Part shown: one piece after another, positions 8,573 to 32,868 of the stretch
Position numbering within the stretch: position 1 is the first letter of the stretch
How the letters are laid out: the number at the start of each line of letters is the position of its first letter
NCBI GenBank assembly: GCA_048939015.1
Contig: JBHLPW010000003.1
Location: 1-64,000 of the forward strand
Source of the DNA: Promethearchaeota archaeon
GTDB taxonomy: Archaea > Asgardarchaeota > Lokiarchaeia > Sigyniarchaeales > SOKP01
Direction of reading: 5' to 3'
DNA: 64,000 bases
Notes under the pieces: generated by a model
Database searches by the model: none
Told to the model about the DNA's origin: nothing
Seen by the model: the letters and a program-made list of their open reading frames with translations, nothing else
Made by a program: the position numbers and the translations under genes

Positions 8573-9553
8573 CTATTTTGATTTCTTTGAATGATCTAAA
8601 ATTAACTTCAATTCATAGAAATCTAATTTTTTTCCTAATTTTTGTTTCTCTAGTGCCTGATTTAGCTTCCTTTCTATTATTTTTTTTGAATATTTTCGTT
8701 TTCTAATAAATTCTTTCTTATTTTGCACTTCTTTCTCTTTAACTACTCTTGGTTTTTTCCTTTTCTTTAATTGGGATAAATCTTCAAGCATATTATTATA
8801 ATTCTCATTTAATAAATCCATATATAATTGATTATAATAAACAGAAACCTCTTTATTATCTGATAATATTACTGCAATTTTTGATTTTATAATATCAAAT
8901 TTTCTTGCTGCTTTATATAATGCAAACATTTTTTTATGTGAGAATAGAAGTCTAGCTGACCATTTTTTTAGATTACTATAGTTCTCTGTTAGCTTTAATT
9001 CAAGAGTATCTATTTTTTTCTTTGTATTATAGAATTTGCTACTTTGAAATTTTCTTTCTTGATTTTTCTCCAATTGTAATAATTGGTTAACATTTATCTT
9101 TGCTTCATCTTCTAGTATTACTAGTTCTTCTGTGATTTTATTTTCAGCATTAATGTCTAAGTTCTGATTTTCTAACTGGTAATTTAGATTAGAAATTTTA
9201 AATTTAATATCCTTAATAGAATTTTTCAAGAATTCTATCTCTGTTAAAGCTTCATTATTTAATTTTGGTGTTTTTATTTTTTTTAATTCATTAGTAAGGC
9301 GAATCCATGTTTGTTCATTTCTTGATTTCTCTCTTCTTAAGATTTTAATTTTTTGTTTGTAATAATCTCTTTGATCAAGATAAAAAGCTCTAGCAATAAA
9401 TAACACCTTCTGAATTCTGAAATCAATCATTTGAAAACTAAAAACAAAATCTCTTAATTTCTGTTTAAATGAATTTTTATTGCGAATAAATTCATTTACC
9501 TCATTTTGTAGATTATCAAAATAGTATTCAAAATTATTGTATTTACCACTCAT
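8573..9553 (-). CDS. Archaeal coiled-coil protein (COG1340-like)
   Basis: Long K/E/L/N heptad pattern. The C-terminal ALEKQKLGKKLDFYELKLIL resembles the tail of this archaeal family. Confidence 0.65.
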   Translation of the reverse strand: MSGKYNNFEYYFDNLQNEVNEFIRNKNSFKQKLRDFVFSFQMIDFRIQKVLFIARAFYLDQRDYYKQKIKILRREKSRNEQTWIRLTNELKKIKTPKLNNEALTEIEFLKNSIKDIKFKISNLNYQLENQNLDINAENKITEELVILEDEAKINVNQLLQLEKNQERKFQSSKFYNTKKKIDTLELKLTENYSNLKKWSARLLFSHKKMFALYKAARKFDIIKSKIAVILSDNKEVSVYYNQLYMDLLNENYNNMLEDLSQLKKRKKPRVVKEKEVQNKKEFIRKRKYSKKIIERKLNQALEKQKLGKKLDFYELKLILDHSKKSK

Positions 9554-9765: not shown

Positions 9766-11448
9766 ATGGAACATAAATTGGAAGATGTGAAAAATGTTGG
9801 AAAAAAAACCGCTGATCTGATGAGGTCAAATGGGATTAAATCTGTTGAAGATTTAGCATCTATTGATATTAATGACTTATTGAAAGTAAGAGGGATTGGT
9901 GAATCCACTGGTAAAATGATTATTGAAAATGCGAAATTGATGTTAAATACCATAAGTAAAAATGAAAAGAAAGAAAATTCTCGATTGGATAAGTTAAATA
10001 GTTTTTCTTCTTCGTTAAAACCTTCAGAAACAATTAAATATCGTTCTGAAAAAAAAAACTATGAGCCCCATAAAAAACTCCAAAAGAAAAATGATTTTGA
10101 AAAAAAAATACAAGATTTTAAAAAGAAAATTCCTTCTGCAAGTATTTCAAAACCAGAAATAAAAAAAAATAAAGAAGATTGCTTAGTCGACCTCTTTAGT
10201 AATGAAAAAATCCAACGAATACAATTTTTACATAATCATCTTAAACAAATTGAGCATAATGTTTATAAAAACTATAATAATTTCCCATTGGGTGATTTAG
10301 ATTTATTTTTGGAATATATCAATATTCTAAATATCAATTATAAGAACAAAAATCATAGTTTAATAATCAATGAATTAAGCCTTACTTCTAATTATTATGA
10401 TCCTGCGAGTAAAAAAAAAATACCTATTAACGATATTATGTATGAATGTGCACGTGTTTCTTGGATTTTAGCAAAAATTTATGCTTTTCTTTCAGAAAAA
10501 TATCAAAATAATGAAAATTTTGAAAATGCTATTTTACTTATGGTAAGAGCTAGTCAAATGTATAAAACTGCAACTTACTTTAGTTCTTCTGCTGTTTATC
10601 AAGAAGAAAAAGGACTTAACCTCGATCCTGAAATATTAGAACTAAATTCAGAAGAATGTAGAATTTTAGCACAAAGTATTGCTGCGTTGAGAGAAGAAAA
10701 AAATAATAATTTATTACTGGCATCTAATTTGTATGCAGGTTTAAATGCTTTATCAAAAAGGCTATATTATTTGAGGGAGCATGAGAAAAAAAAAAAATGG
10801 CAAATAGAAGCAAAAATGAATTATCATATGGGTAAATCTTATCAAATGAGAATAATAGCTATGCTCAATCTTATAAATCAAGATAAATTTATTAAAGAGT
10901 CGCTAGATACTATAAGAAAATTACACATAAAGGCCTATTATTACTTCACTAAAGCAAAAGACATATGGGAAAAAATGTTACAAAATCTAAATAATCTTTT
11001 AGAAGAAGAAATAAAAATATTGAAGTCAAATTTAACAGTTGTTAATACAAATATCGTAGAAACAGAAGTTAAAAATATCGATTATAATGAAGTAAAGGAT
11101 ATTCAAGATTGTGAACCAATTATTATTATTCCAGAGATTCATTCGTTGATTTTTCCAAAACCCATAACTTATTTAACTAAATTTCCCCCTAAAGATGTAA
11201 ATATTAAAAGAATTAAGAAATTTAGAAACTTATTTTTCAATAATTATCATCCCACGAATGAAAAACAAGATCTCTTAAATCTCAAATCAGCAATTGGAAG
11301 AACAATTAGGCAAATAAATATACTTTATGACAACAACGATATTGAAATTGACAAATATGTTGAATTAATGGAAAAATATAATATCAGGCTAAAAATGATT
11401 GAAGATAAGATTGCAAAATTTAACAATTCGGAAAAAAAAAAGAAGTAA
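9766..11448 (+). CDS. (HhH)2 domain + BRO1-like domain + C-terminal helical hairpin protein (paralogue A)
   Basis: The N-terminus LEDVKNVGKKTA...LLKVRGIGESTG is a RadA-N-type HhH pair. No ATPase motifs. The core YYDP...IMYECARV...LDPEILE...ILAQ follows the BRO1 pattern. The HhH call is firm; BRO1 is by eye. Confidence 0.7.
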   Translation: MEHKLEDVKNVGKKTADLMRSNGIKSVEDLASIDINDLLKVRGIGESTGKMIIENAKLMLNTISKNEKKENSRLDKLNSFSSSLKPSETIKYRSEKKNYEPHKKLQKKNDFEKKIQDFKKKIPSASISKPEIKKNKEDCLVDLFSNEKIQRIQFLHNHLKQIEHNVYKNYNNFPLGDLDLFLEYINILNINYKNKNHSLIINELSLTSNYYDPASKKKIPINDIMYECARVSWILAKIYAFLSEKYQNNENFENAILLMVRASQMYKTATYFSSSAVYQEEKGLNLDPEILELNSEECRILAQSIAALREEKNNNLLLASNLYAGLNALSKRLYYLREHEKKKKWQIEAKMNYHMGKSYQMRIIAMLNLINQDKFIKESLDTIRKLHIKAYYYFTKAKDIWEKMLQNLNNLLEEEIKILKSNLTVVNTNIVETEVKNIDYNEVKDIQDCEPIIIIPEIHSLIFPKPITYLTKFPPKDVNIKRIKKFRNLFFNNYHPTNEKQDLLNLKSAIGRTIRQINILYDNNDIEIDKYVELMEKYNIRLKMIEDKIAKFNNSEKKKK

Positions 11449-11634: not shown

Positions 11635-13617
11635 GTGACGAATATAACATCTATAATGTATGTGGCTAATAGTATTGGAAAATCGACTGTAGAAAGAATG
11701 AAACAAATGGGAATAGACTCAATTGAAAAATTAGCATCTTCTAGTGTAGAAAATTTATTAGCTATCGATGGTATTGGAGTTTCAAAAGCAAAAGACTATA
11801 TCCGTTTTGCACAGCAGCATATTGAAAGAATTAAAGCAAAAGAAAAAATATTTACTATGATTAATAAAGCAGGGACATCTGATGCTCCAAAATCAGTGGA
11901 TAATCTTAGTGTTTTAAAATCACATGATAAAATTTGTGATTCAAAAGCCCCATTTAGCTCAATAAAAAAAATAGCCTCTTCGAGTATTGATGAATTATCC
12001 AAAATAAAGGGTATGAGTCCAGCAGAAGCACAAAGGTATATAGAGATTGCAAATAAGTATATTACAAGCATGAGGAAAGAAGAAGCTGCACCAAAAGTCC
12101 AAGCCTTAGGTTTTATAAAGTTCGATGAAAAAAGAGAGAAAACAAATTTAGAACTACCAATGACACCTAAACAAAAGCAAGATTTAAAATTGAAATTAGA
12201 AAAACCTCAAATTGACATTAAATCACTTAAAAGACCAGTTATTGATAAGAAAGTAATCAAAAAATCAGAAAAAACAAAAACTGTAAAATTAGAGCCATTA
12301 AAAGTAGATATAAAGCCAACACCAGTATTAAAAACATTTTTTAATACTGAAACTATGCAAAATATTCGATTTTTCCACTTCAAAATCAAAAAGCTGGAAG
12401 AATTATTAGCTAGAAATGTTTCCTTTGACTTTTCTGAGTTAAATAACATTATAGATTATGTTCAAATTCTTAATACTAATTATAAGACTCAAAGTCAAAT
12501 TAAGATCTTTAAAGAATTAGAGATAACTCCATCATTCTATGATCCTATCGCGAAAAGGGATATTGAAATATGGGATTTAATTTTTGAGTGCGCAAGAGTT
12601 TTAGAAATTTCAGCGCAGGCATATTCTTCTCTTTCAGCAAAGTTTGAATTAGAGGATTTAATGGAAAATGCCATTGTAGCGATGGTTGAGTGTAGTAAAA
12701 TGTATAAAACTGCTGCTTATTTTAGTGCTGCTTGTACTCGACAAGAAGATAAAGGAATCTTGTTGTCAGTTGAGACTCTTGAAATGAAATCGGAGGAAGC
12801 TCGAATTCTTGCCCAAAATTTAGCCACTATAAGTGAAGAAAAGAAAGAAAATTATTCAATGGCTGCGAATTTATCTGCAGGATTAAGTGCTCTTGCCAAA
12901 AGATTAGCTTTTTTAAAGAAATATGATGATAAGGAAGAAAAACACTTCAAGGCTCAATATAATTATGATATGGGTAGATCTTGCCATTTATATTCTAAAT
13001 CTCTATTAAAGTTACAGCCAAAAGGTGAAAATGCAGAAAAAGTTAGAGATTATCAGAAAAAAGCTAATTATTACTATCTAAAAGCTGAAGAAACATGGGA
13101 ATATATGTTAAAAAAATGTGAGGAATTATCAGAACCGGAAAAGAAAAACATAAAGAATAATTTAATAGTAGTAAATGAAAAGATAATTCAAAATGATGTT
13201 GAGATAATAGATGATAATGAGGCTTTAGAGATACAAGATCCAGAACCACTTATCATCATTCCAGAAAATTTGGCACCATTTATGCCAAGGACCACTAATT
13301 ATCTTACAAAATATAAACAAACAGATCTTAATTTTGATGCCTACTTACGGTATAAAAATATAATGTCTGATGTAATGATGAATAAGAATAAAATCGAAGA
13401 ACTGCGAAATAATAAAGCAGGTATTGGTCGAACACTTAAACAATTACAAATCCTATACGATAATAATGATATTGACATTAACAGTTTTACTGAACTTTAT
13501 GAAAAATATTCTATAAAACTTGAAAACATAGAATCTGCAATTCAAAATTTAACAAATCCTGAAAAGAAAATTAATAGAACAAAACCTCATAAGGAGATTC
13601 TTAAAACAATTATGTAA
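11635..13617 (+). CDS. HhH-repeat + BRO1-like domain + C-terminal helical hairpin protein (paralogue B)
   Basis: HhH motifs SIGKSTVE...LLAIDGIGVSKA and LSKIKGMSPAEA. It is a clear paralogue of 9766..11448 (ECARV, MYKTA, SEExRILAQ, EPxIIIPE, IGRT, LYDNNDI are shared). GTG start. Confidence 0.7.
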   Translation: MTNITSIMYVANSIGKSTVERMKQMGIDSIEKLASSSVENLLAIDGIGVSKAKDYIRFAQQHIERIKAKEKIFTMINKAGTSDAPKSVDNLSVLKSHDKICDSKAPFSSIKKIASSSIDELSKIKGMSPAEAQRYIEIANKYITSMRKEEAAPKVQALGFIKFDEKREKTNLELPMTPKQKQDLKLKLEKPQIDIKSLKRPVIDKKVIKKSEKTKTVKLEPLKVDIKPTPVLKTFFNTETMQNIRFFHFKIKKLEELLARNVSFDFSELNNIIDYVQILNTNYKTQSQIKIFKELEITPSFYDPIAKRDIEIWDLIFECARVLEISAQAYSSLSAKFELEDLMENAIVAMVECSKMYKTAAYFSAACTRQEDKGILLSVETLEMKSEEARILAQNLATISEEKKENYSMAANLSAGLSALAKRLAFLKKYDDKEEKHFKAQYNYDMGRSCHLYSKSLLKLQPKGENAEKVRDYQKKANYYYLKAEETWEYMLKKCEELSEPEKKNIKNNLIVVNEKIIQNDVEIIDDNEALEIQDPEPLIIIPENLAPFMPRTTNYLTKYKQTDLNFDAYLRYKNIMSDVMMNKNKIEELRNNKAGIGRTLKQLQILYDNNDIDINSFTELYEKYSIKLENIESAIQNLTNPEKKINRTKPHKEILKTIM

Positions 13618-24818: not shown

Positions 24819-25073
24819 ATGGCTGAAGAACCACAACTCCCTCCTCTCCCAGCAATCACAGATGATTGGGACCGTAAGAAAAGATTTGTTGAAAAAAAAC
24901 ATACTATTGTCAAATGTGGTGAATGTAAAGAGAGTTATTCACGTTTGTTCACACCTGGAGATTTTGTATTTAAGAAATTAACTGGTGAGGAATGTGAAAA
25001 ATGTCATAGGGCCAAATCCTTAACAGTTGTAGAGATCTATTCTGAATGGATTGATCCTAAGAAAAATAAATAG
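24819..25073 (+). CDS. Small zinc-ribbon protein
   Basis: 84 aa with CGEC...CEKC and the motif R.F..GDFVFK. Confidence 0.75.
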   Translation: MAEEPQLPPLPAITDDWDRKKRFVEKKHTIVKCGECKESYSRLFTPGDFVFKKLTGEECEKCHRAKSLTVVEIYSEWIDPKKNK

Positions 25074-25080
25074 TATTTAA

Positions 25081-25719
25081 TTATTTCCTTATCCTTTTTC
25101 TATTAATCCATATATATAGACATCCTAAAGCTATACCAAATGCTATCAGAATTGAGACAGACATAAAAAACCCTGGAATACCGAGAGTATTGATATCAAA
25201 AAAATAATAGATATAATTTCCTGTTATTGTCCCATAAATGACTGCAAATATGATATAGCATAATGGATATATCATCCAATAAAGTAAATAGTTCCACTTA
25301 TATTGCATTTGAATTTCTGTTAATATCCAATCAATAATGAAGGCAATTGGAGTAATATAATGTAGAACTAGATTACTAAATGCTGCCCATCCTGTTGGTT
25401 GGTAAAATGGACTCAGTAAGATTGCAAAGACCACGAAAGTTATTGTTATATACATAGTAAAAGCACCTTTGAGAGGCCCCATAATTTTACTAAGAGATTC
25501 TGGTTTATTATGCCATAAAATTGCTAGTGTAAACCATATAGTTATTATAGAGTTAGTTTGTATTGTGAAAGCTATAAAGCTATTAAACCATTCGAGGAAC
25601 GGACGACCATATATAACAGCATAGACAATTGGACTTGTTATAAAAGTAAACCAACTTAGTGCTGCAAAAATAATACGATAAATTAAGAGATTTTTGCCTG
25701 AAAGTGTTAAATTTTTCAT
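25081..25719 (-). CDS. Pr6Pr / FAR-17a-AIG1-like integral membrane protein
   Basis: About 6 TM helices; FTIQTN, LHYITP...DW, YPL.Y and YYFFD motifs. Confidence 0.8.
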   Translation of the reverse strand: MKNLTLSGKNLLIYRIIFAALSWFTFITSPIVYAVIYGRPFLEWFNSFIAFTIQTNSIITIWFTLAILWHNKPESLSKIMGPLKGAFTMYITITFVVFAILLSPFYQPTGWAAFSNLVLHYITPIAFIIDWILTEIQMQYKWNYLLYWMIYPLCYIIFAVIYGTITGNYIYYFFDINTLGIPGFFMSVSILIAFGIALGCLYIWINRKRIRK

Positions 25720-25795
25720 TTTTATAAACTCCTAATAAATATTTAGATGTGTATTAAGCAAGAACAATGATATTAAAACTATTCTCTTATGGATA

Positions 25796-25842
25796 TCTCG
25801 AGTCCTAGCATCTTTATACTAAGATTTGCCATCGAGTAAGGA
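25796..25842. repeat. Direct repeat copy 1: displaced duplicate of the meaB 3' end (att-like)
   Basis: 44/47 nt identical to 29799..29845. Confidence 0.92.
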
Positions 25843-25873
25843 ACATAAAAAAAAAGAAAAGAAAAAATTTTAA

Positions 25874-28800
25874 TTATTTATTTAATGCTTTTTCTTTTTT
25901 ACGCTTTTGATATATTCTTATAGAAATTATAGTAGCAGCTCCTAATAAAACAGGAACTACCATGTCAAAGCCTGGCACTGTAGGAGGAGGATTAGAAGGA
26001 GGATTAGGTTCTTCCCCAACAGTTGTAAATGTCCAATCCGGAGATTGAGCTGTACTTATTCCATCATCGGCTACTACATACCATGAATAAGTGGTTTCCG
26101 CTGAAAGTCCTGACCAAGTTGCCGAAGCTGTACCACTCCCACCGATGATTATATCCGTACCTATTACACTGCTATCTGAAGCATCATAAAAAGTAACTGT
26201 TAAGTCATCCCCATTACCATCGTAAACATCAACACTTAATGTAGGATTATAATCAATATTCATTGCCAGATCACTTGGAGATGGATTTGTTGGTTCATTT
26301 GGTATTTGATTTATAGTAAATGACCATGTAGTAGATTGATTAGTATTTAACCCATCATCTGCTATTGCATACCATGAATAAGTGATTCCCAGTGAAAGGC
26401 CAAACCAGGGTATCGAAGCTGTACCAATCCCACCAGAGACAATATTGGAAGTTATTACACTATCATCAGATGCGTCATAAAATGTGACTGTTAAGTCATC
26501 TCCATCACTATCGTAAACATCGACACTTAATGTAGGATTATTATTAATGATGATTGCGCCATCAAATGGAGATGGATTTGTTGGTTCATTTGGTATATGA
26601 CCTGTAATAAATGACCATGTAGTAGACTTACTTTTATTTAACCCATCATCAGCAATTGCATACCATGAATAAGTGGTTCCCGGTAAAAGACCCGACCAAA
26701 TAACAGAAGCTGTACCACTCCCGCCATAGACAATATCGGAATTTATTACACTGTCATCCGATGCGTTATAAAATGTAACGGTTAAGTCATCCCCATCATC
26801 ATCGAACACGTCTACACTTAATGTAGGATTAAAATTAACGTTAAGTGCACCATCACTCGGAGATGGATTTATGGGCTCATTAGGTACAAGATTAGTAGTA
26901 AATGACCAAGTAACAGACTTACTTTTATTTAACCCATCATCAGCAATTGCATACCATGAATAAGTGGTTCCCGGTAAAAGACCCGACCAAATAACAGAAG
27001 CTGTACCACTCCCGCCATAGACAATATCGGAATTTATTACACTGTCATCCGATGCGTTATAAAATGTAACGGTTAAGTCATCCCCATCATCATCGAACAC
27101 GTCTACGCTTAACGCAGGATTATAGTTAACATCTATGGCACCATTGCTAGGAGATGGATTGGTTGGTTCATTAGGCGTATGAACTGTGGTAAATAACCAT
27201 GTAGCAGATTTACTTTTATTTAACCCATCAGCGGCTGTTGCATACCATGAATAAGTGGTCCCCGGTAAAAGACTCGACCAAATAACAGAAGCTGTACCAC
27301 TCCCGCCATAGACAATATCGGAATCTATTACACTGTCATCCGATGCATCATAAAATGTAACGGTTAAGTCATTCCCATCATCATCGAACACGTCTACGCT
27401 TAACGCAGGATTATAGCTAACAACTGTGGCACCATTGCTAGGAGATGGATTGGTCGGCTCATGAGGTATGTGATTTATAATGAATGACCATATAGCAGAT
27501 TGATTCGTATTTAACCCATCATCCGCTATTGCATACCATGAATAAGTGATCCACGATGAAAGGCCAGACCAGGTTATCGAAGCTGTACCACTCCCACCAG
27601 AGACAATATCGGAATCTATTATACTGTTATCCGATGCGTTATAAAATGTAACGGTTAAGTTATCCCCATCATCATCGAACACGTCTACACTTAACGCAGG
27701 ATCATTGCTAACAACTATGGCACCATTGCTAGGAGATGGATTGATTGGCTTATTAGGTACATGATTAGTTGTGAATGACCATGTAGCAAATCGAACCGCC
27801 TTTGTACCATCATCTGCTATTATATACCATGAATAACTCGTACCAATTGTTAGTCCCGACCAGGTTATCGAAGCTGTACCACTCCCACCAGAGACAATAT
27901 CGAAATCTATTATACTGTCATCTGATGCATCGTAAAATGTAATATTTAAGTCATCCCCTTCTAAGTCATTCGTCTCTACACTTAATGTAGGATTATAATG
28001 AAGACCAATAGCGCCGTCAGCGGGAGATGGATCATAGATAGATAAGCTTTTTTGAATATAAGTGAGTTCTATGAATGGTGGAAAATTACTTGCATATTCA
28101 GTATAACAAATCGCGTCACCTGTAGGATTTACAGTATGATTATGGGGAGCACTAGATGTCGTAGTTTGGAGAGTTCTAGCTGTTGAAGGTGCGTGATAGA
28201 TTGGTACCCCTCCTGGATCAGTTACCAAACCGGTTAAACCCGTTACATAGGTAATGTCGTGACTATGAGTCATTGGATCATTTAAAATACCATGCGTATG
28301 TAAAGGAACTTCACTATAGATATGGCGGTGAGTTTCATTTCCTCCAGTAATTCCAGGGTCTTCCCCAGTTGCTAATCCTCTTGGAAATCTATTAACCATA
28401 TTAGGAGTACCATATGATCCATTGCATTGGTACCAACCTGAGGGGATATCTGCCATTAAATTTCCCCACATAACAATAGAACCCATAGGTAATGCATCGG
28501 TTATCACTGTATTCATTATAAAAGCTAGCTTATAATATGGGGGCAAATGGTTTGAATTTTGAGTAGTGCATTCTGTTATTCCAGCTTCGTTCATAGTATG
28601 GTTATGAGGCACATTAGCGTCATATGTATGATAAGTATCAGTAAAAAAAGACTGCGCACCACCAGGATAAACAAATGTTCCAAAAAATGCACTCATATCA
28701 TAATCATGAGTGTGACTGAATCCTTCACTAGAAAGGGAATGTGAGTGAATTGGTATATCAGTATATGTATGATTATGGGTTAAGCTTCCACCTGAAGATC

Positions 28801-29533
28801 CTGGATCCTCTCCTGAAGAGACTCCTTGGATGAACTTATCCCGAAGATCAGGCGTTCCGTCTGATCCATTGCAAATTATCCAGCCTGTAGGAAGATCTTC
28901 AATAGAGCCTGCCCACATAACTATTAATCCAATAGGTACACTCGGATCACTTGTTTCTTTCTCGATAAATGCCAACTCATAATACGGTGGGAGAATATTC
29001 TCTTCAGATGTATAACAGATAGGGTTGCCTGTTTGCTCTACTTCATGTGAATGAGTGGCAGAATCAGGAGTACTTGTTGAAGTACTATAACCCACAACCT
29101 CCGTAGTACCCCCTTCCTGACAAAGTGTAGTGGTTTGGGGTAATAAATAGTTGTGGTTGTGTTGACATTGTGCTGTACTAGTTATGCCATGATCATGATA
29201 GGGAACCATTGTATAACTATGATTATGTGAACTACTACCACCTATGGTTCCAGGTTCTTCCATAGTATCAGTACTGTAGACAAACTTATTACTTATATTT
29301 AACGTTCCACCGCTTCCATCACATAACTTCCAGCCATTTGGGATTGTATTTAGGGGTCCAGACCATAAAGCAATTATTCCTGAGTGGTCAGATTCGGCAT
29401 TAATTCTAAGATTATTCTTATTTGTAAGTCTAGTGACAAATCCTGAATTATTATAACTGTTTATAGAGAAAAGAACTAATAAAAATATAGTTACAGTTAA
29501 AAATCTCTTAGTTTTATCATTTTTTTTAAACAT
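25874..29533 (-). CDS. Cell-surface protein: 3 tandem phage-tail-collar/HxH modules + 7 Ig/FN3-like repeats + PGF-type sorting signal and TM helix
   Basis: Signal-like N-terminus; three G.I..W.G....P.GW..C[DN]G..GT....F...PP[YF]..L.[FY]I units; seven 97-aa PSP.....P.LSV...D.D...VTFY...YSWY..ADDG repeats; Pro linker, VPGF, TM helix and basic tail. Confidence 0.85.
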   Translation of the reverse strand: MFKKNDKTKRFLTVTIFLLVLFSINSYNNSGFVTRLTNKNNLRINAESDHSGIIALWSGPLNTIPNGWKLCDGSGGTLNISNKFVYSTDTMEEPGTIGGSSSHNHSYTMVPYHDHGITSTAQCQHNHNYLLPQTTTLCQEGGTTEVVGYSTSTSTPDSATHSHEVEQTGNPICYTSEENILPPYYELAFIEKETSDPSVPIGLIVMWAGSIEDLPTGWIICNGSDGTPDLRDKFIQGVSSGEDPGSSGGSLTHNHTYTDIPIHSHSLSSEGFSHTHDYDMSAFFGTFVYPGGAQSFFTDTYHTYDANVPHNHTMNEAGITECTTQNSNHLPPYYKLAFIMNTVITDALPMGSIVMWGNLMADIPSGWYQCNGSYGTPNMVNRFPRGLATGEDPGITGGNETHRHIYSEVPLHTHGILNDPMTHSHDITYVTGLTGLVTDPGGVPIYHAPSTARTLQTTTSSAPHNHTVNPTGDAICYTEYASNFPPFIELTYIQKSLSIYDPSPADGAIGLHYNPTLSVETNDLEGDDLNITFYDASDDSIIDFDIVSGGSGTASITWSGLTIGTSYSWYIIADDGTKAVRFATWSFTTNHVPNKPINPSPSNGAIVVSNDPALSVDVFDDDGDNLTVTFYNASDNSIIDSDIVSGGSGTASITWSGLSSWITYSWYAIADDGLNTNQSAIWSFIINHIPHEPTNPSPSNGATVVSYNPALSVDVFDDDGNDLTVTFYDASDDSVIDSDIVYGGSGTASVIWSSLLPGTTYSWYATAADGLNKSKSATWLFTTVHTPNEPTNPSPSNGAIDVNYNPALSVDVFDDDGDDLTVTFYNASDDSVINSDIVYGGSGTASVIWSGLLPGTTYSWYAIADDGLNKSKSVTWSFTTNLVPNEPINPSPSDGALNVNFNPTLSVDVFDDDGDDLTVTFYNASDDSVINSDIVYGGSGTASVIWSGLLPGTTYSWYAIADDGLNKSKSTTWSFITGHIPNEPTNPSPFDGAIIINNNPTLSVDVYDSDGDDLTVTFYDASDDSVITSNIVSGGIGTASIPWFGLSLGITYSWYAIADDGLNTNQSTTWSFTINQIPNEPTNPSPSDLAMNIDYNPTLSVDVYDGNGDDLTVTFYDASDSSVIGTDIIIGGSGTASATWSGLSAETTYSWYVVADDGISTAQSPDWTFTTVGEEPNPPSNPPPTVPGFDMVVPVLLGAATIISIRIYQKRKKEKALNK
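26020..28045 (-). repeat. Intragenic tandem repeat, 291-bp unit (97 aa), 7 copies
   Basis: TTTAACCCATCA recurs with a 291-bp period. The central copies are nearly identical. Confidence 0.92.
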
Positions 29534-29793
29534 TGGAATAACACCTTAAAATTTGAAAGGTATCACTGTCTAATTTGGTTTCTTAAGCTTAAAAACCTTA
29601 TGGTCAATTCTATCAGAAATTAATAAAATTCTACATTATAAGTAAAAAAAAGATAAAGAATTACTATTTATAAGTATATGAATTCAATTAATAATCTTTT
29701 CGACAAAATTTAATGTAATTTCTATTGAAATCTCTTGATTTATTGTGGATTACGTTTATTCAATATCAAAATAAGAAGTTTGAGTTCTAATTC

Positions 29794-30789
29794 TTATTTC
29801 TCAAGTCCTAGCATCTTTATAATAAGGTTTGCCATCGAGTAAGGATCTAATGATTTCTGAATGGCTTGATCAATGTACTTTCCAATTTCTTTATCAGAAC
29901 TGAGTAAATCTTCAACCTTTTTAGTCAGTTTATGTTTTAAAATTTGTAACGTCTCATTTGTAATCCGGTTTTTCATATAATTCGAAATGACTCCTGATTG
30001 TTCCAGAAATAGTTGATGTTGTTTAATTAATTTTAATAGCTCATCAAAATTATCACCGGTTTTAGAGTTAACCTTTGTTATTTCAGGTGTCCAGAGCTCT
30101 ATCTTAGCATACTTTCTGTGGATTTCATTTGAATCATATTTATAATTTTTTCTGAATTCTAACATCTGTTTTATTTCCGCAATTTTCTTATCTGCTCCGG
30201 ATAAATCCATTTTGTTAACGACAAAAATATCAGTTATTTCCATGATCCCTGATTTTATTGCTTGAATATCATCACCCAATCCCGGAACTAATAACACTAC
30301 TACAGTTTGTGCAGATTTAAAGATATCAACTTCTGATTGTCCAACACCAACGGTCTCAACGATAATAATATCACATCCATAAGCGTCAAGAATTTTTATT
30401 ACATCCTCTGTGGCACGAGCAAGACCTCCTAATTGTCCTCTATTGGCCATACTTCTAATAAAAACATTATTAAGGGAGAAATTCTGTTTCATACGGATTC
30501 GATCTCCCAAAAGAGCCCCACCAGTTAAAGGGGAAGTTGGATCGACACATATTATCCCGACTTTTTTACCTTGTTCAACATAAAACCTAGTTAAAGTAGA
30601 AATGAAGGTAGACTTACCTGTACCTGGTGCTCCAGTTATTCCTAAGATATAAGCGTTACCTGTATATTCATAAATAGAATTAACAATGTCTTCCGCAACA
30701 TCAATATCATTCTCAACAAAAGTAATTAGACGCGCAGCAGCTCTAGGGTTTCCATTTAATAATTGAGAAATAAAATTAGAATAATCCAT
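29794..30789 (-). CDS. meaB: Acyl-CoA mutase-associated GTPase MeaB/ArgK
   Basis: GITGAPGTGKST, VDPTSP.TGGALLGDRIRM, ETVGVGQSE and NKMD. Confidence 0.96.
   Translation of the reverse strand: MDYSNFISQLLNGNPRAAARLITFVENDIDVAEDIVNSIYEYTGNAYILGITGAPGTGKSTFISTLTRFYVEQGKKVGIICVDPTSPLTGGALLGDRIRMKQNFSLNNVFIRSMANRGQLGGLARATEDVIKILDAYGCDIIIVETVGVGQSEVDIFKSAQTVVVLLVPGLGDDIQAIKSGIMEITDIFVVNKMDLSGADKKIAEIKQMLEFRKNYKYDSNEIHRKYAKIELWTPEITKVNSKTGDNFDELLKLIKQHQLFLEQSGVISNYMKNRITNETLQILKHKLTKKVEDLLSSDKEIGKYIDQAIQKSLDPYSMANLIIKMLGLEK
29799..29845. repeat. Direct repeat copy 2 (within the meaB 3' end)
   Basis: Encodes PYSMANLIIKMLGLE of MeaB and matches 25796..25842. Confidence 0.92.
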
Positions 30790-30797
30790 TCTATTAA

Positions 30798-31199
30798 TTA
30801 TCTTTTCAAGTTGTTTTTAACAAATTCAACAATCGTTTTCAGATCGGTACCAGGTCCATAAAAACCTTTTAATCCACTTTTTTCTAAAAAAACCTTATCT
30901 TCATCCGGTATGATACCACCTACAGCTACAAGAACATCATCAATTCCTTTTTCTTTCAATTTATCCATGATAACTGGGCATAATGCATTATGAGCACCGG
31001 ATAACATACTTAGCATCACTGCATCAGGGTCTTCTTGGATAACTGTATTGACAACATCATCTGGAGTTTGGTGAATTCCTGTATAGATGACTTCCATTCC
31101 CGCATCTCTAAGAGCCCTTGCGAGAACTTTTGCGCCTCTATCATGACCATCTAATCCCGGTTTACATACAAGTACTTTGATTTTCCTTTCTTCTGGCAT
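30798..31199 (-). CDS. Cobalamin-binding small subunit of acyl-CoA mutase
   Basis: KPGLDGHDRGAK (DxHxxG), SMLSGAH and GGIIP. Confidence 0.95.
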   Translation of the reverse strand: MPEERKIKVLVCKPGLDGHDRGAKVLARALRDAGMEVIYTGIHQTPDDVVNTVIQEDPDAVMLSMLSGAHNALCPVIMDKLKEKGIDDVLVAVGGIIPDEDKVFLEKSGLKGFYGPGTDLKTIVEFVKNNLKR

Positions 31200-31212
31200 T
31201 TAAAACCACATC

Positions 31213-32868
31213 CTAAAATATTGAATCTTCATGATAAGTTCCGAACACTTCTTTTAAAGCATTTATGATTTCTCCGATAGAGGTATATTCTCTTACAGCA
31301 TCAATGATGAATGGCATTAAATTTTCTGTACCCCTAGCTGCTTCTTTTAGGCTCTCAATTTTTTCCTGAACTTTATCATTATCTCGTTCTTCTTTTAATT
31401 TATTTAATTTTCTAATTTGTTCACTTGCTACTTTTTCATCAATTTTTAAAAGCGGAACTGAACATGGTTCCCTTTGTTCGAATTGATTTACAGCTACAAT
31501 TGTTCTTTCTCTATTCTCGACTTCCTGCTGATATTTATAAGAAGCATTAGCAATTTCTTTTTGAAAGAAGTTTGCTTTTATAGCAGGAACAACCCCTCCT
31601 AGTTCTTCTATTCTTCTAAAATAATCTTCTGCTTCTTCTTCCATCTTATTTGTTAACCATTCTACGTAATATGAACCAGCTAAAGGATCAACGGTATCAG
31701 TTACTCCTGATTCGTGTGCGATTATTTGTTGAGTTCTTAATGCTATTTTTACAGCATTTTCTGTTGGAAGGCATAAAGCTTCATCAAATGAATTGGTATG
31801 TAAGGATTGTGTTCCACCAAGAACAGAAGCTAACGCTTGTATTGTTACTCTGGCAATATTATTTTCTGGTTCTTGAGCTGCTAAAGAAACTCCAGCAGTT
31901 TGCGTATGAAATCGTAATCGCATTGATTCTGGTTTTTTTGCACCATATCTATTTTTCATATGTCTAGCCCAAATACGCCTAGCAGCACGATATTTACAAA
32001 TTTCCTCAAAAAAATTATTATGAGAATTAAAGAAGAAGGATAAACGAGGTGCAAATTCATCAATATCTAATCCTCTTTCGAGGGCGGCTTCAACATAAGC
32101 AAATCCATCTGCTAATGTAAATGCTAATTCTTGAACTGCTGTTGATCCCGCTTCTCTTATGTGATATCCACTAATACTAATTGTATACCATTGAGGTACA
32201 TACTTCGTACAATATTCAATTGTATCTACAATAATTCGCATAGAGGGTTCTGGAGGAAATATCCATGATTTCTGGGCTATATACTCCTTTAAAATGTCAT
32301 TTTGAATGGTTCCTCTTAATTGTTCTGGAGTATGTCCTTGCCTTTCAGCAGTGACAATGTATAACGCTAATAAAATAGAGGCAGGACCATTTATAGTCAT
32401 AGAAGTACTTATCTTTGAAAGATCAATCCCATTGAACAAAGTTTCCATATCTTTTAATGAATCTATAGCAACTCCTTCCTTTCCAATTTCTCCTAATGCT
32501 CGAGGATCAGTTGCTTCAATGCCATAAATAGTGTGTAAACTAAAGGCTACACTTAATCCAGTATTACCATGATCAATTAAAAATTTATATCTCTCATTAG
32601 TTTGTTCTGCATTACCAAATCCTGCGAATTGACGCATTGTCCATAGTTGTCCTCTATACATATTTGGATATGCGCCTCGAGTGAACGGATATTGTCCTGG
32701 AAACCCTAGATCAAGGGCATAATTAAAATCTTTAACATCATTAGGAGTGTATAATCTTTTTATTTCAATTTCAGATAAGTTCCTAAAACTTTGTTTTCTT
32801 TCCTTCTTAAGTGAAATGGAATTCTCCCATTCTTCCATTTCTCGCTTAATTTTATCATGTTCAGTCAT
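31213..32868 (-). CDS. B12-dependent acyl-CoA mutase, substrate-binding large subunit (isobutyryl-CoA mutase-like)
   Basis: PFTRG.Y..MY, WTMRQFAGFG, QNDILKEYIAQK, ISISGYHIREAG and GGTQSLHTN. Confidence 0.93.
   Translation of the reverse strand: MTEHDKIKREMEEWENSISLKKERKQSFRNLSEIEIKRLYTPNDVKDFNYALDLGFPGQYPFTRGAYPNMYRGQLWTMRQFAGFGNAEQTNERYKFLIDHGNTGLSVAFSLHTIYGIEATDPRALGEIGKEGVAIDSLKDMETLFNGIDLSKISTSMTINGPASILLALYIVTAERQGHTPEQLRGTIQNDILKEYIAQKSWIFPPEPSMRIIVDTIEYCTKYVPQWYTISISGYHIREAGSTAVQELAFTLADGFAYVEAALERGLDIDEFAPRLSFFFNSHNNFFEEICKYRAARRIWARHMKNRYGAKKPESMRLRFHTQTAGVSLAAQEPENNIARVTIQALASVLGGTQSLHTNSFDEALCLPTENAVKIALRTQQIIAHESGVTDTVDPLAGSYYVEWLTNKMEEEAEDYFRRIEELGGVVPAIKANFFQKEIANASYKYQQEVENRERTIVAVNQFEQREPCSVPLLKIDEKVASEQIRKLNKLKEERDNDKVQEKIESLKEAARGTENLMPFIIDAVREYTSIGEIINALKEVFGTYHEDSIF

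Follow-up and report, generated by a model that had tools for sequence, protein, structure and literature searches.

A single-gene cassette at the 3' end of meaB in a Lokiarchaeon, probably inserted by host homologous recombination

Introduction

How does a gene enter a chromosome at a defined site without bringing an integrase of its own? The question is raised by a 4-kb segment at the 3' end of meaB, the gene of a MeaB/ArgK-type G-protein chaperone, in a Promethearchaeota archaeon (assembly GCA_048939015.1, 4.86 Mb in total). The DNA analyzed here, referred to as the window, comprises positions 1 to 64,000 of contig JBHLPW010000003.1. The segment holds one gene, encoding a cell-surface protein of 1219 aa, and is bounded by two copies of the meaB 3' end, or tail. 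It is probably a mobile single-gene cassette that travels on gene-tail homology arms and is inserted by host homologous recombination, without an integrase.

Gene flux in Asgard archaea has been attributed to integrases, transposases and viruses (PMC8813620, PMC13247210). Acquired genes are abundant in the large genomes of Asgard archaea, and the meaB locus provides an unusually clean natural experiment in which no recombinase gene is present at the site. In the following sections, G numbers denote genomes of the window's genus, of which there are 53 besides its own, and L numbers denote fetched loci.

A cassette between two copies of the meaB tail

The meaB gene (29794..30789, minus strand; Pfam PF03308, E = 1e-84) is the last of a row formed by a mutase gene, a B12-binding subunit gene and meaB. 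Its working tail (29796..29845, minus strand), which ends in ...LGLEK*, is the consensus tail of the genus. This stretch is repeated directly at 25793-25842, with 46 of 50 nt identical and a spacing of 4003 nt. A search of the 4.86-Mb assembly recovers the second copy with E = 3e-14 and reveals no third one. Sequence comparison places the second copy in a displaced meaB tail remnant of 64 nt (25779..25842, minus strand), which repeats the last 16 codons of meaB and has no start codon. Read in frame, the meaB gene ends in PYSMANLIIKMLGLEK and the distal copy in PYSMANLSIKMLGLEISIRE, with the stop of the latter at 25779-25781. The remnant has undergone an Ile-to-Ser change and has lost the original stop codon. 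When the differences are polarized with eight relatives, four to five derived changes fall in the distal copy, compared with one, which is synonymous, in the meaB gene.

The material between the two copies is arranged on the minus strand. A non-coding 5' region of 260 nt (29534..29793, 21.9% GC), presumed to contain the cargo promoter, precedes the cargo gene (25874..29533), and a T-rich run read directly from the sequence (25843..25873), an oligo-T stretch of the archaeal terminator type, follows the cargo stop codon and abuts the remnant. The cargo gene is the single long open reading frame (ORF) between the repeats, where no other ORF exceeds 61 aa. Its GC content of 38.7% compares with 31.1 +/- 3.2% for the 2024 ORFs of at least 300 aa in the genome and lies in the top 0.7%. 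Much of this layout had been read from the letters alone in an earlier note on this DNA. The repeat described there, 47 nt in length, is real and extends to the 50-nt alignment given above; both translations and the distal stop are as reported, and two of the three differences within the 47-mer are synonymous. Exactly one gene, with its own upstream region and T-rich run, lies between the copies, and the higher GC content noted by eye is confirmed by measurement.

Empty sites in the genus

MeaB orthologues with 75-93% identity are found in 36 of the 53 other genus genomes, and the DNA downstream of meaB was fetched from genus representatives (about 36 loci). In 12 genus genomes, meaB is followed directly by a gene for a Pr6Pr-family membrane protein, and in 7 it is followed directly by a gene of 84 aa. 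These are the empty sites, as the earlier note had suggested might exist alongside different cargo at other loci, which is also observed (see below). Its concern that all relatives might carry the adhesin here proved unfounded, as the 1219-aa cargo gene is present at the meaB site in none of the genus representatives examined. In the window, the Pr6Pr-family gene, the native downstream neighbor of meaB at empty sites, lies beyond the remnant (25081..25719, minus strand; NCBIfam NF038065, E = 1.6e-24). The conserved 84-aa gene (24819..25073, plus strand) is convergent with the meaB row, is present at every locus reaching far enough, and forms the right-hand anchor of the variable region.

The insertion can be seen directly by comparison with one empty-site genome, G020, which aligns to window positions 31192-29794 and then to 25842-24305, and whose positions 1695-1746 match both repeat copies of the window. 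Relative to G020, the window carries a 3.95-kb insertion and a target duplication of 52 nt. An exact look-up of the window's MeaB matched no record and gave no empty allele from the same species.

Three gains of one cassette at one site

The two closest homologues of the cargo in a collection of 5.8 billion proteins, with 77% and 62% identity, are both encoded immediately after meaB, one on an ENA contig (L060) and the other in three records of another Lokiarchaeon (L061-L063). In L060 and L061, the cargo gene is followed by a T-run and then by a displaced meaB tail (about 106 and 119 nt, respectively). The same architecture has been assembled in these four other records from different samples. 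Carriers were placed in a tree built from MeaB residues 1-295. The nearest empty-site relative of L060 is G018 (support 98/93), with 106 nt of the target matched twice; that of L061 is G062 (100/99), with 119 nt matched twice; and the window is nearest to G054 or G020 (85/83), a fork that is left open, with 52 nt matched twice. Each of the three carriers belongs to a clade of its own with empty-site genomes next to it, and two of them are supported sisters of such genomes. One cassette has therefore been gained three times at one site, with target duplications that vary from 50 to 119 nt among the three copies. L060 lacks the Pr6Pr gene that is found after the remnant in the window and L061. 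The carrier hosts are roughly equidistant (78-82% MeaB identity), and their cargo proteins are 77% versus 61-65% identical; this incongruence between cargo and host divergence is weak and is not a main argument.

Direction and reciprocity of the tail exchange

The L060 locus reveals which of the two tails is the newcomer. Its backbone aligns with that of G018 over 2453 nt, free of gaps and with 91% identity. MeaB of G018 and its clade terminates in ...LAGEILKLFFEK, but the L060 gene ends in ...MANLII..LGLEK, like the clade of the window. It is the displaced copy of L060 that ends in ...LAGEILKLFFEK* and runs into G018-like downstream DNA. The in-gene copy follows G018 as far as a 23-nt stretch (AATAAAATTGAGGAATTTATTGA), located 83-105 nt before the stop, and resembles the donor beyond it. 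The displaced copy is donor-like before the same stretch and G018-like thereafter, with 81 of 84 nt matching up to the stop. The two L060 tails are reciprocal chimeras with one switch point. Because both switch within a single 23-nt stretch, the in-gene tail is the one that arrived together with the cassette, and the distal tail is native to the locus. The chimera also demonstrates that an older remnant was already part of the donor cassette.

The imported tail encodes the genus-consensus end of MeaB and shows no visible recoding. Body and tail of the gene are discordant in ancestry: in the body tree, the partner of L060 is G018 and that of G017 is G067, but in both pairs the tail types differ. 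In the window, the sequence from the meaB stop onward is homologous to the other two cassettes and not to the empty-site relatives. The empty-site alleles and the comparison of L060 with G018 substantiate the central proposal of the earlier note, namely that an integrase-less cassette arrived in the meaB 3' end, resupplied the tail and displaced the old one.

Recurrent changes at the meaB tail

The interval between meaB and the 84-aa gene is a hypervariable spot. Cargo types seen there include Pr6Pr, YdjC, HEPN/MNT, GNAT, Imm5-like and LRR genes, among others. At other meaB loci, the cargo is a YdjC-like gene in five genomes, a HEPN/MNT pair in four, and in one genome each an Imm5-like gene, a HEPN-nucleotidyltransferase fusion and a five-gene block of 5.8 kb. 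Recombination in the meaB tail recurs among them, which supports homologous recombination as the mode of entry. For example, a YdjC-like cassette follows meaB in G019 (L033 1040-2123, G019:C60) together with a displaced meaB tail of 165 nt, and YdjC cassettes in G022 and G014 (L032, L035) are accompanied by meaB tail stubs of about 25 nt. The remnants in these three genomes abut the 84-aa gene, as meaB itself does in insertion-free genomes.

A different outcome is observed in G017 (L040, G017:C3), whose tail is of the MANLII type, in contrast to the LAGEIL type of its sister G067 and of G024. The switch lies about 45 nt ahead of the stop, a HEPN/MNT pair comes next (1061-1817), and no remnant is present; the event looks like a plain two-sided replacement. 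Self-similarity searches and searches with a panel of tails detected no remnant at the variable loci of G003, G017, G045, G047, G050, G060, G066 and G069. Therefore, hotspot cargo is not always accompanied by a scar. A further candidate for a displaced tail, on G001:C305, was rejected: this contig begins inside the meaB gene of a second, more distant strain in the bin and continues with Pr6Pr and the 84-aa gene.

Searches for mobility enzymes

None of the three cassette copies encodes a recombinase, transposase or homing nuclease, and neither do the YdjC and HEPN/MNT cassettes or any further cargo at the meaB site (about 36 genus loci and L060-L063). Nor is an integrase-bearing element present at meaB in these loci, which are a sample of genomes. 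The tyrosine recombinase family PF00589 has no match on the contig of the window; the four tyrosine recombinases of the genome are all on other contigs, and one of them (311 aa, E = 9e-43) looks to us like a chromosomal Xer-type enzyme. LAGLIDADG matches in the genome are confined to contigs C8, C14, C23 and C43. The cassette shows none of the hallmarks of transposons, casposons, Tn7 or integrons (transposase, Cas1, IntI, terminal inverted repeats, attC, or a short target duplication of fixed length), and the inverted repeats in the region are short, imperfect and at chance level. A scan of 25000-30900 against Rfam with E up to 1, which covers the cassette 5' region, gave no match.

Similar islets elsewhere in the genome

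A scan of the whole assembly yields ten islets, that of the window and nine others, in which a 44-258-nt copy of a gene tail lies 1-7 kb downstream of the gene in the same orientation. Ten different genes are involved, and their tails have no common core, the longest common word being 11 nt. The nine further islets are L064 (C12:129000-136500), L065 (C32:113800-118500), L066 (C46), L067 (C77), L068 and L069 (both C82), L070 (C85), L071 (C100) and L072 (C117). Their target genes include DegT, FlpD/MvhD, an AsnC regulator, rps2 and an SMC-like gene, as well as a Mg-chelatase/VWA gene, an AMP-binding enzyme (acyl-CoA synthetase-like) and a ferredoxin-domain protein. Among their cargo are two ATP-binding cassette (ABC) transporters, a EutA-like gene, NosD/beta-helix surface proteins and a methyltransferase. 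The cargo ORFs scanned, namely all those of L064-L067, L070 and L071, some of those of L069 and L072, and none of L068, include no recombinase.

Homologues of the window's cargo at other loci in G014 and G004 are likewise bracketed by direct repeats, of 106-281 nt and 84-86% identity (L113 8431-8532 / 12625-12731; L114 6282-6562 / 9267-9547; L115 7595-7700 / 11083-11187). In L113 and L114, one repeat copy is the tail of a neighboring gene. This surface-protein family seems to be a frequent cargo.

A model of cassette entry and its alternatives

In the proposed model, the cassette would begin with a functional meaB tail and a 5' regulatory region, continue with the surface-protein gene and its T-rich terminator, and close with an older fragment of the meaB tail. 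Entry would take place by homologous recombination within the last 50-120 nt of meaB, and the exchange would be reciprocal: the host gene would keep its body and take the incoming tail, and the host's own tail would be left behind the cargo as a dead remnant. This could happen through a single crossover with a circular intermediate, the circle being made by recombination between the two tail copies of the donor, or through two-ended repair of a break in the meaB tail, with a cassette-bearing allele (tail, cargo, old tail) as the template. Both routes would equally yield a reciprocal chimera of the L060 type. In neither would an element-encoded integrase, transposase or nuclease be involved; the task would fall to the recombination proteins of the host, acting on DNA that presumably passed between cells. 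The conserved gene tail and the remnant would serve as portable homology arms, making the cassette movable between species of the genus.

Several observations weigh against this model. The origin of the two arms of the first cassette is unexplained. Both tail copies in the window carry the same lineage-specific bases, and for this reason the import of the window's tail is deduced from L060 rather than directly visible; a very close donor, later gene conversion or local duplication would look alike there. The switch point has been mapped precisely in one case only, L060, and the stretch 83-105 nt before the stop is common to the duplications of L060, L061 and G019. A fixed crossover site in that stretch is countered only by G017 and by the shorter remnant of the window, where the repeat comprises the last 50 nt only and lies outside the L060 switch stretch. 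A later deletion could explain this short remnant.

That common stretch is among the points in favor of an attachment (att)-flanked integrative cassette without its own integrase, akin to a cis-mobilizable element (CIME) or satellite, in which a recombinase encoded elsewhere would insert a circle whose attP mimics the gene end. Direct repeats at a gene 3' end, with the end restored, are the classic footprint of such elements, the same cargo has entered the same gene three times, and the genome encodes four tyrosine recombinases. This explanation is nevertheless rather unlikely: no integrase-bearing element occurs at the site in the genus loci or in the two outside assemblies, the switch stretch of L060 lies outside the window repeat and the switch in G017 is about 45 nt from the stop, and ten unrelated tails without a common core represent too many specificities for four recombinases. 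Host homologous recombination explains more of the data. The interpretation in the earlier note holds in one part, a cassette that replaces the tail without an integrase, and not in its framing as an att site or provirus; an att site served in trans is improbable on the same three grounds. A homing element similar to the WHO elements of yeasts, whose endonuclease has been lost or acts in trans, would cut sensitive meaB tails, and repair would copy a resistant tail together with the cargo. The product, with its chimeric full-length gene, cargo and old 3' fragment as right-hand homology, fits the WHO model exactly (PMC7282813), both L060 exchanges begin at one point, as a single break predicts, and LAGLIDADG genes occur elsewhere in the genome. 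However, no nuclease gene is found in the three cassette copies, the YdjC or HEPN/MNT cassettes or the other cargo at the locus, and the imported tail encodes the genus consensus without visible recoding, so that homing, too, is unlikely.

Local origin followed by vertical descent would require one ancestral event of tail duplication and gene insertion, by illegitimate recombination or replication template switching, and later precise losses in most descendants through recombination between the repeats. The lineage-specific bases common to the two window tails agree with it, direct repeats of 50-120 nt would permit precise loss, and for a fast-evolving surface protein 62-77% identity alone is compatible with descent. 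It is nonetheless very unlikely, given that many independent precise losses would be needed, that the in-gene tail of L060 differs in type from those of its sister and its own remnant and must have been imported, that the carriers are in three separate clades beside empty-site genomes, and that L060 lacks the Pr6Pr gene following the remnant in the other two. An assembly artefact, which the earlier note had considered, would mean that sequences were joined chimerically or that a repeat was collapsed when this genome was assembled from a metagenome. The contamination of the bin is 6.5%, and the 291-nt tandem repeats of the cargo break some assemblies. This concern is practically negligible, as the distal junction was assembled independently in the Logan assembly of run SRR30758808, with 100% identity over the cargo end, the remnant and Pr6Pr (window 24864-26653), the same layout is present in the four other records from different samples, and the remnant decays in the manner of a pseudogene.

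Comparison with known systems

In the CIMEs of Streptococcus and in decayed integrative elements, cargo lies between direct repeats at a gene 3' end, no recombinase is encoded inside, and mobilization occurs in trans. Islands of this type have att sites in common with integrase-bearing elements at the same site and possess one fixed core. The meaB cassette resembles them in its repeat-bounded cargo, in the restored 3' end of its target gene and in the lack of its own recombinase, but no integrase-bearing relative was found at the site in the loci sampled, and no fixed core has emerged from the switch points, of which those of L060 and the window could be reconciled by a later deletion in the window's remnant. 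Among Asgard elements, the HeimV1 provirus of Heimdallarchaeum encodes an integrase and lies next to tRNA-Gly (PMC8813620). Both elements are archaeal and are located at or in a conserved gene; HeimV1 differs in having an integrase and a tRNA target. The words "duplication", "target site" and "homologous recombination" do not occur in the text of that study (PMC8813620).

A closer parallel is the displacement of C-terminal ends in the rhs genes of Enterobacteriaceae, for which homologous recombination with circular intermediates, and no integrase, has been proposed (Jackson et al., 2009, PMC2935791). In both systems, a full-length gene is followed by dissociated 3' copies, and a new end acquired laterally with downstream cargo displaces the old one (PMC2935791); such a lateral in-gene end is observed in L060 and is presumed for the window. 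The reciprocal chimeras of L060 are compatible with a circular intermediate of the rhs type. Unlike the rhs tip, which is a different toxin domain (with an immunity gene) and alters function, the meaB tail encodes the same MeaB end and keeps the gene intact. The systems also differ in that the payload here is an unrelated, separate gene, the host is an archaeon and the target is a housekeeping chaperone gene.

WHO elements at FBA1 in Torulaspora and Lachancea yeasts likewise use a downstream gene fragment as right-hand homology (Coughlan et al., 2020, PMC7282813). As at meaB, each entry gives a housekeeping gene a new 3' end and leaves the former one downstream, where it offers homology for the next entry; the target gene is chimeric, and its 5' and 3' parts are discordant in ancestry (here in L060 and G017). 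In contrast to WHO elements, which encode the initiating endonuclease and a resistance-conferring tail, the meaB cassette has no nuclease, and its tail is not visibly recoded. No published description of gene-tail displacement in archaea was found in the literature searched, the coverage of which is incomplete.

Wider implications

Among the instances of the pattern examined, the meaB locus offers the clearest comparative evidence, combining three gains, three nearby empty-site genomes and one exchange mapped to 23 nt. More tentatively, Lokiarchaeia, and perhaps Asgard archaea generally, might gain and exchange genes widely through recombinase-free cassettes, for whose mobility a working tail of a conserved host gene and the earlier, dead tail would suffice, with host recombination between the two tails excising circles and inserting them into orthologous genes across species and with the ends of housekeeping genes as docking sites; a sizeable share of accessory-gene flux could then take this route, although such breadth is for now somewhat doubtful. 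If the pattern is general, gene tails would themselves be attachment sites, and gene fragments without a start codon that lie downstream of accessory genes could serve as dated traces of earlier transfers. The mosaic evolution of gene ends that would result has consequences for phylogenies inferred from the genes concerned. Caution is also advised in annotation, where such fragments should not be labeled as pseudogenes of duplicated genes or as att sites of lost proviruses.

The cargo protein and its 5' region

The cargo protein comprises an N-terminal hydrophobic signal or anchor, three collar modules, seven Ig-like repeats and a PGF-type C-terminal membrane anchor. Its Pfam matches are Collar and Ig-like. 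The three modules, of about 150 aa each, all match the phage tail collar domain, and their HxH pairs are invariant in all three across 24 homologues. They are arranged in tandem in one chain (window 27950-29400, cargo residues about 45-530). The seven Ig-like repeats of 97 aa correspond to tandem units of 291 nt. A profile of the N-terminal part matches three solved chains of tail-fibre type (9qgo, 9nxk, 6ov6), each with three chains per entry, which suggests that the collar part could be a single-chain mimic of a trimeric fibre tip. Structure prediction of the three collar modules (alignment A1, 24 sequences) gave a mean predicted local distance difference test score (pLDDT) of 36 and a predicted template modeling score (pTM) of 0.22; because this model is unusable, the relation to tail fibres rests on sequence only. 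Surface adhesin or receptor-binding protein would be a fair description of the predicted product.

The cargo gene is present in a single copy in its own genome and is patchy in the genus, where 12 of the 53 genomes have homologues, at most 60% identical and at loci other than meaB. At the nucleotide level, the insert and these twelve homologues have coding similarity alone (63-82% identity in aligned segments), with no common flanks and no donor among the representatives. A collection of viral contigs queried with the cargo returned one match of 55 residues, with 39% identity and at a contig end, and no related element. The insert is one surface-protein gene of cellular type, at odds with the reduced provirus considered in the earlier note.

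The cassette 5' regions of the window (29534-29793), L060 (2512-2853) and L061 (5646-6000) can be aligned from the meaB stop onward; the ribosome-site region is alignable too, as is a block of about 25 nt (AATCAAGAGATTTCAATAGAAATTA). Several blocks, among them this one and the 20 nt that precede the start codon, are nearly unchanged even though the cargo proteins are only 62-77% identical. The window lacks about 85 nt that are present in L060 and L061. The conserved blocks are likely to be a promoter or operator.

Upstream of meaB lie the genes of the B12-binding subunit (30798-31199, minus strand) and the mutase large subunit (31213-32868, minus strand). In G020, G010, G023 and G004 (L010, L012, L020, L024), the DNA upstream of the B12-binding gene shows about 40% identity to the window's mutase gene and does not align with it, and the left side of the operon may vary as well. 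A second MeaB paralogue, 42% identical, is encoded in the window's own genome (G000:C71:11687-12568) and is also present in most relatives.

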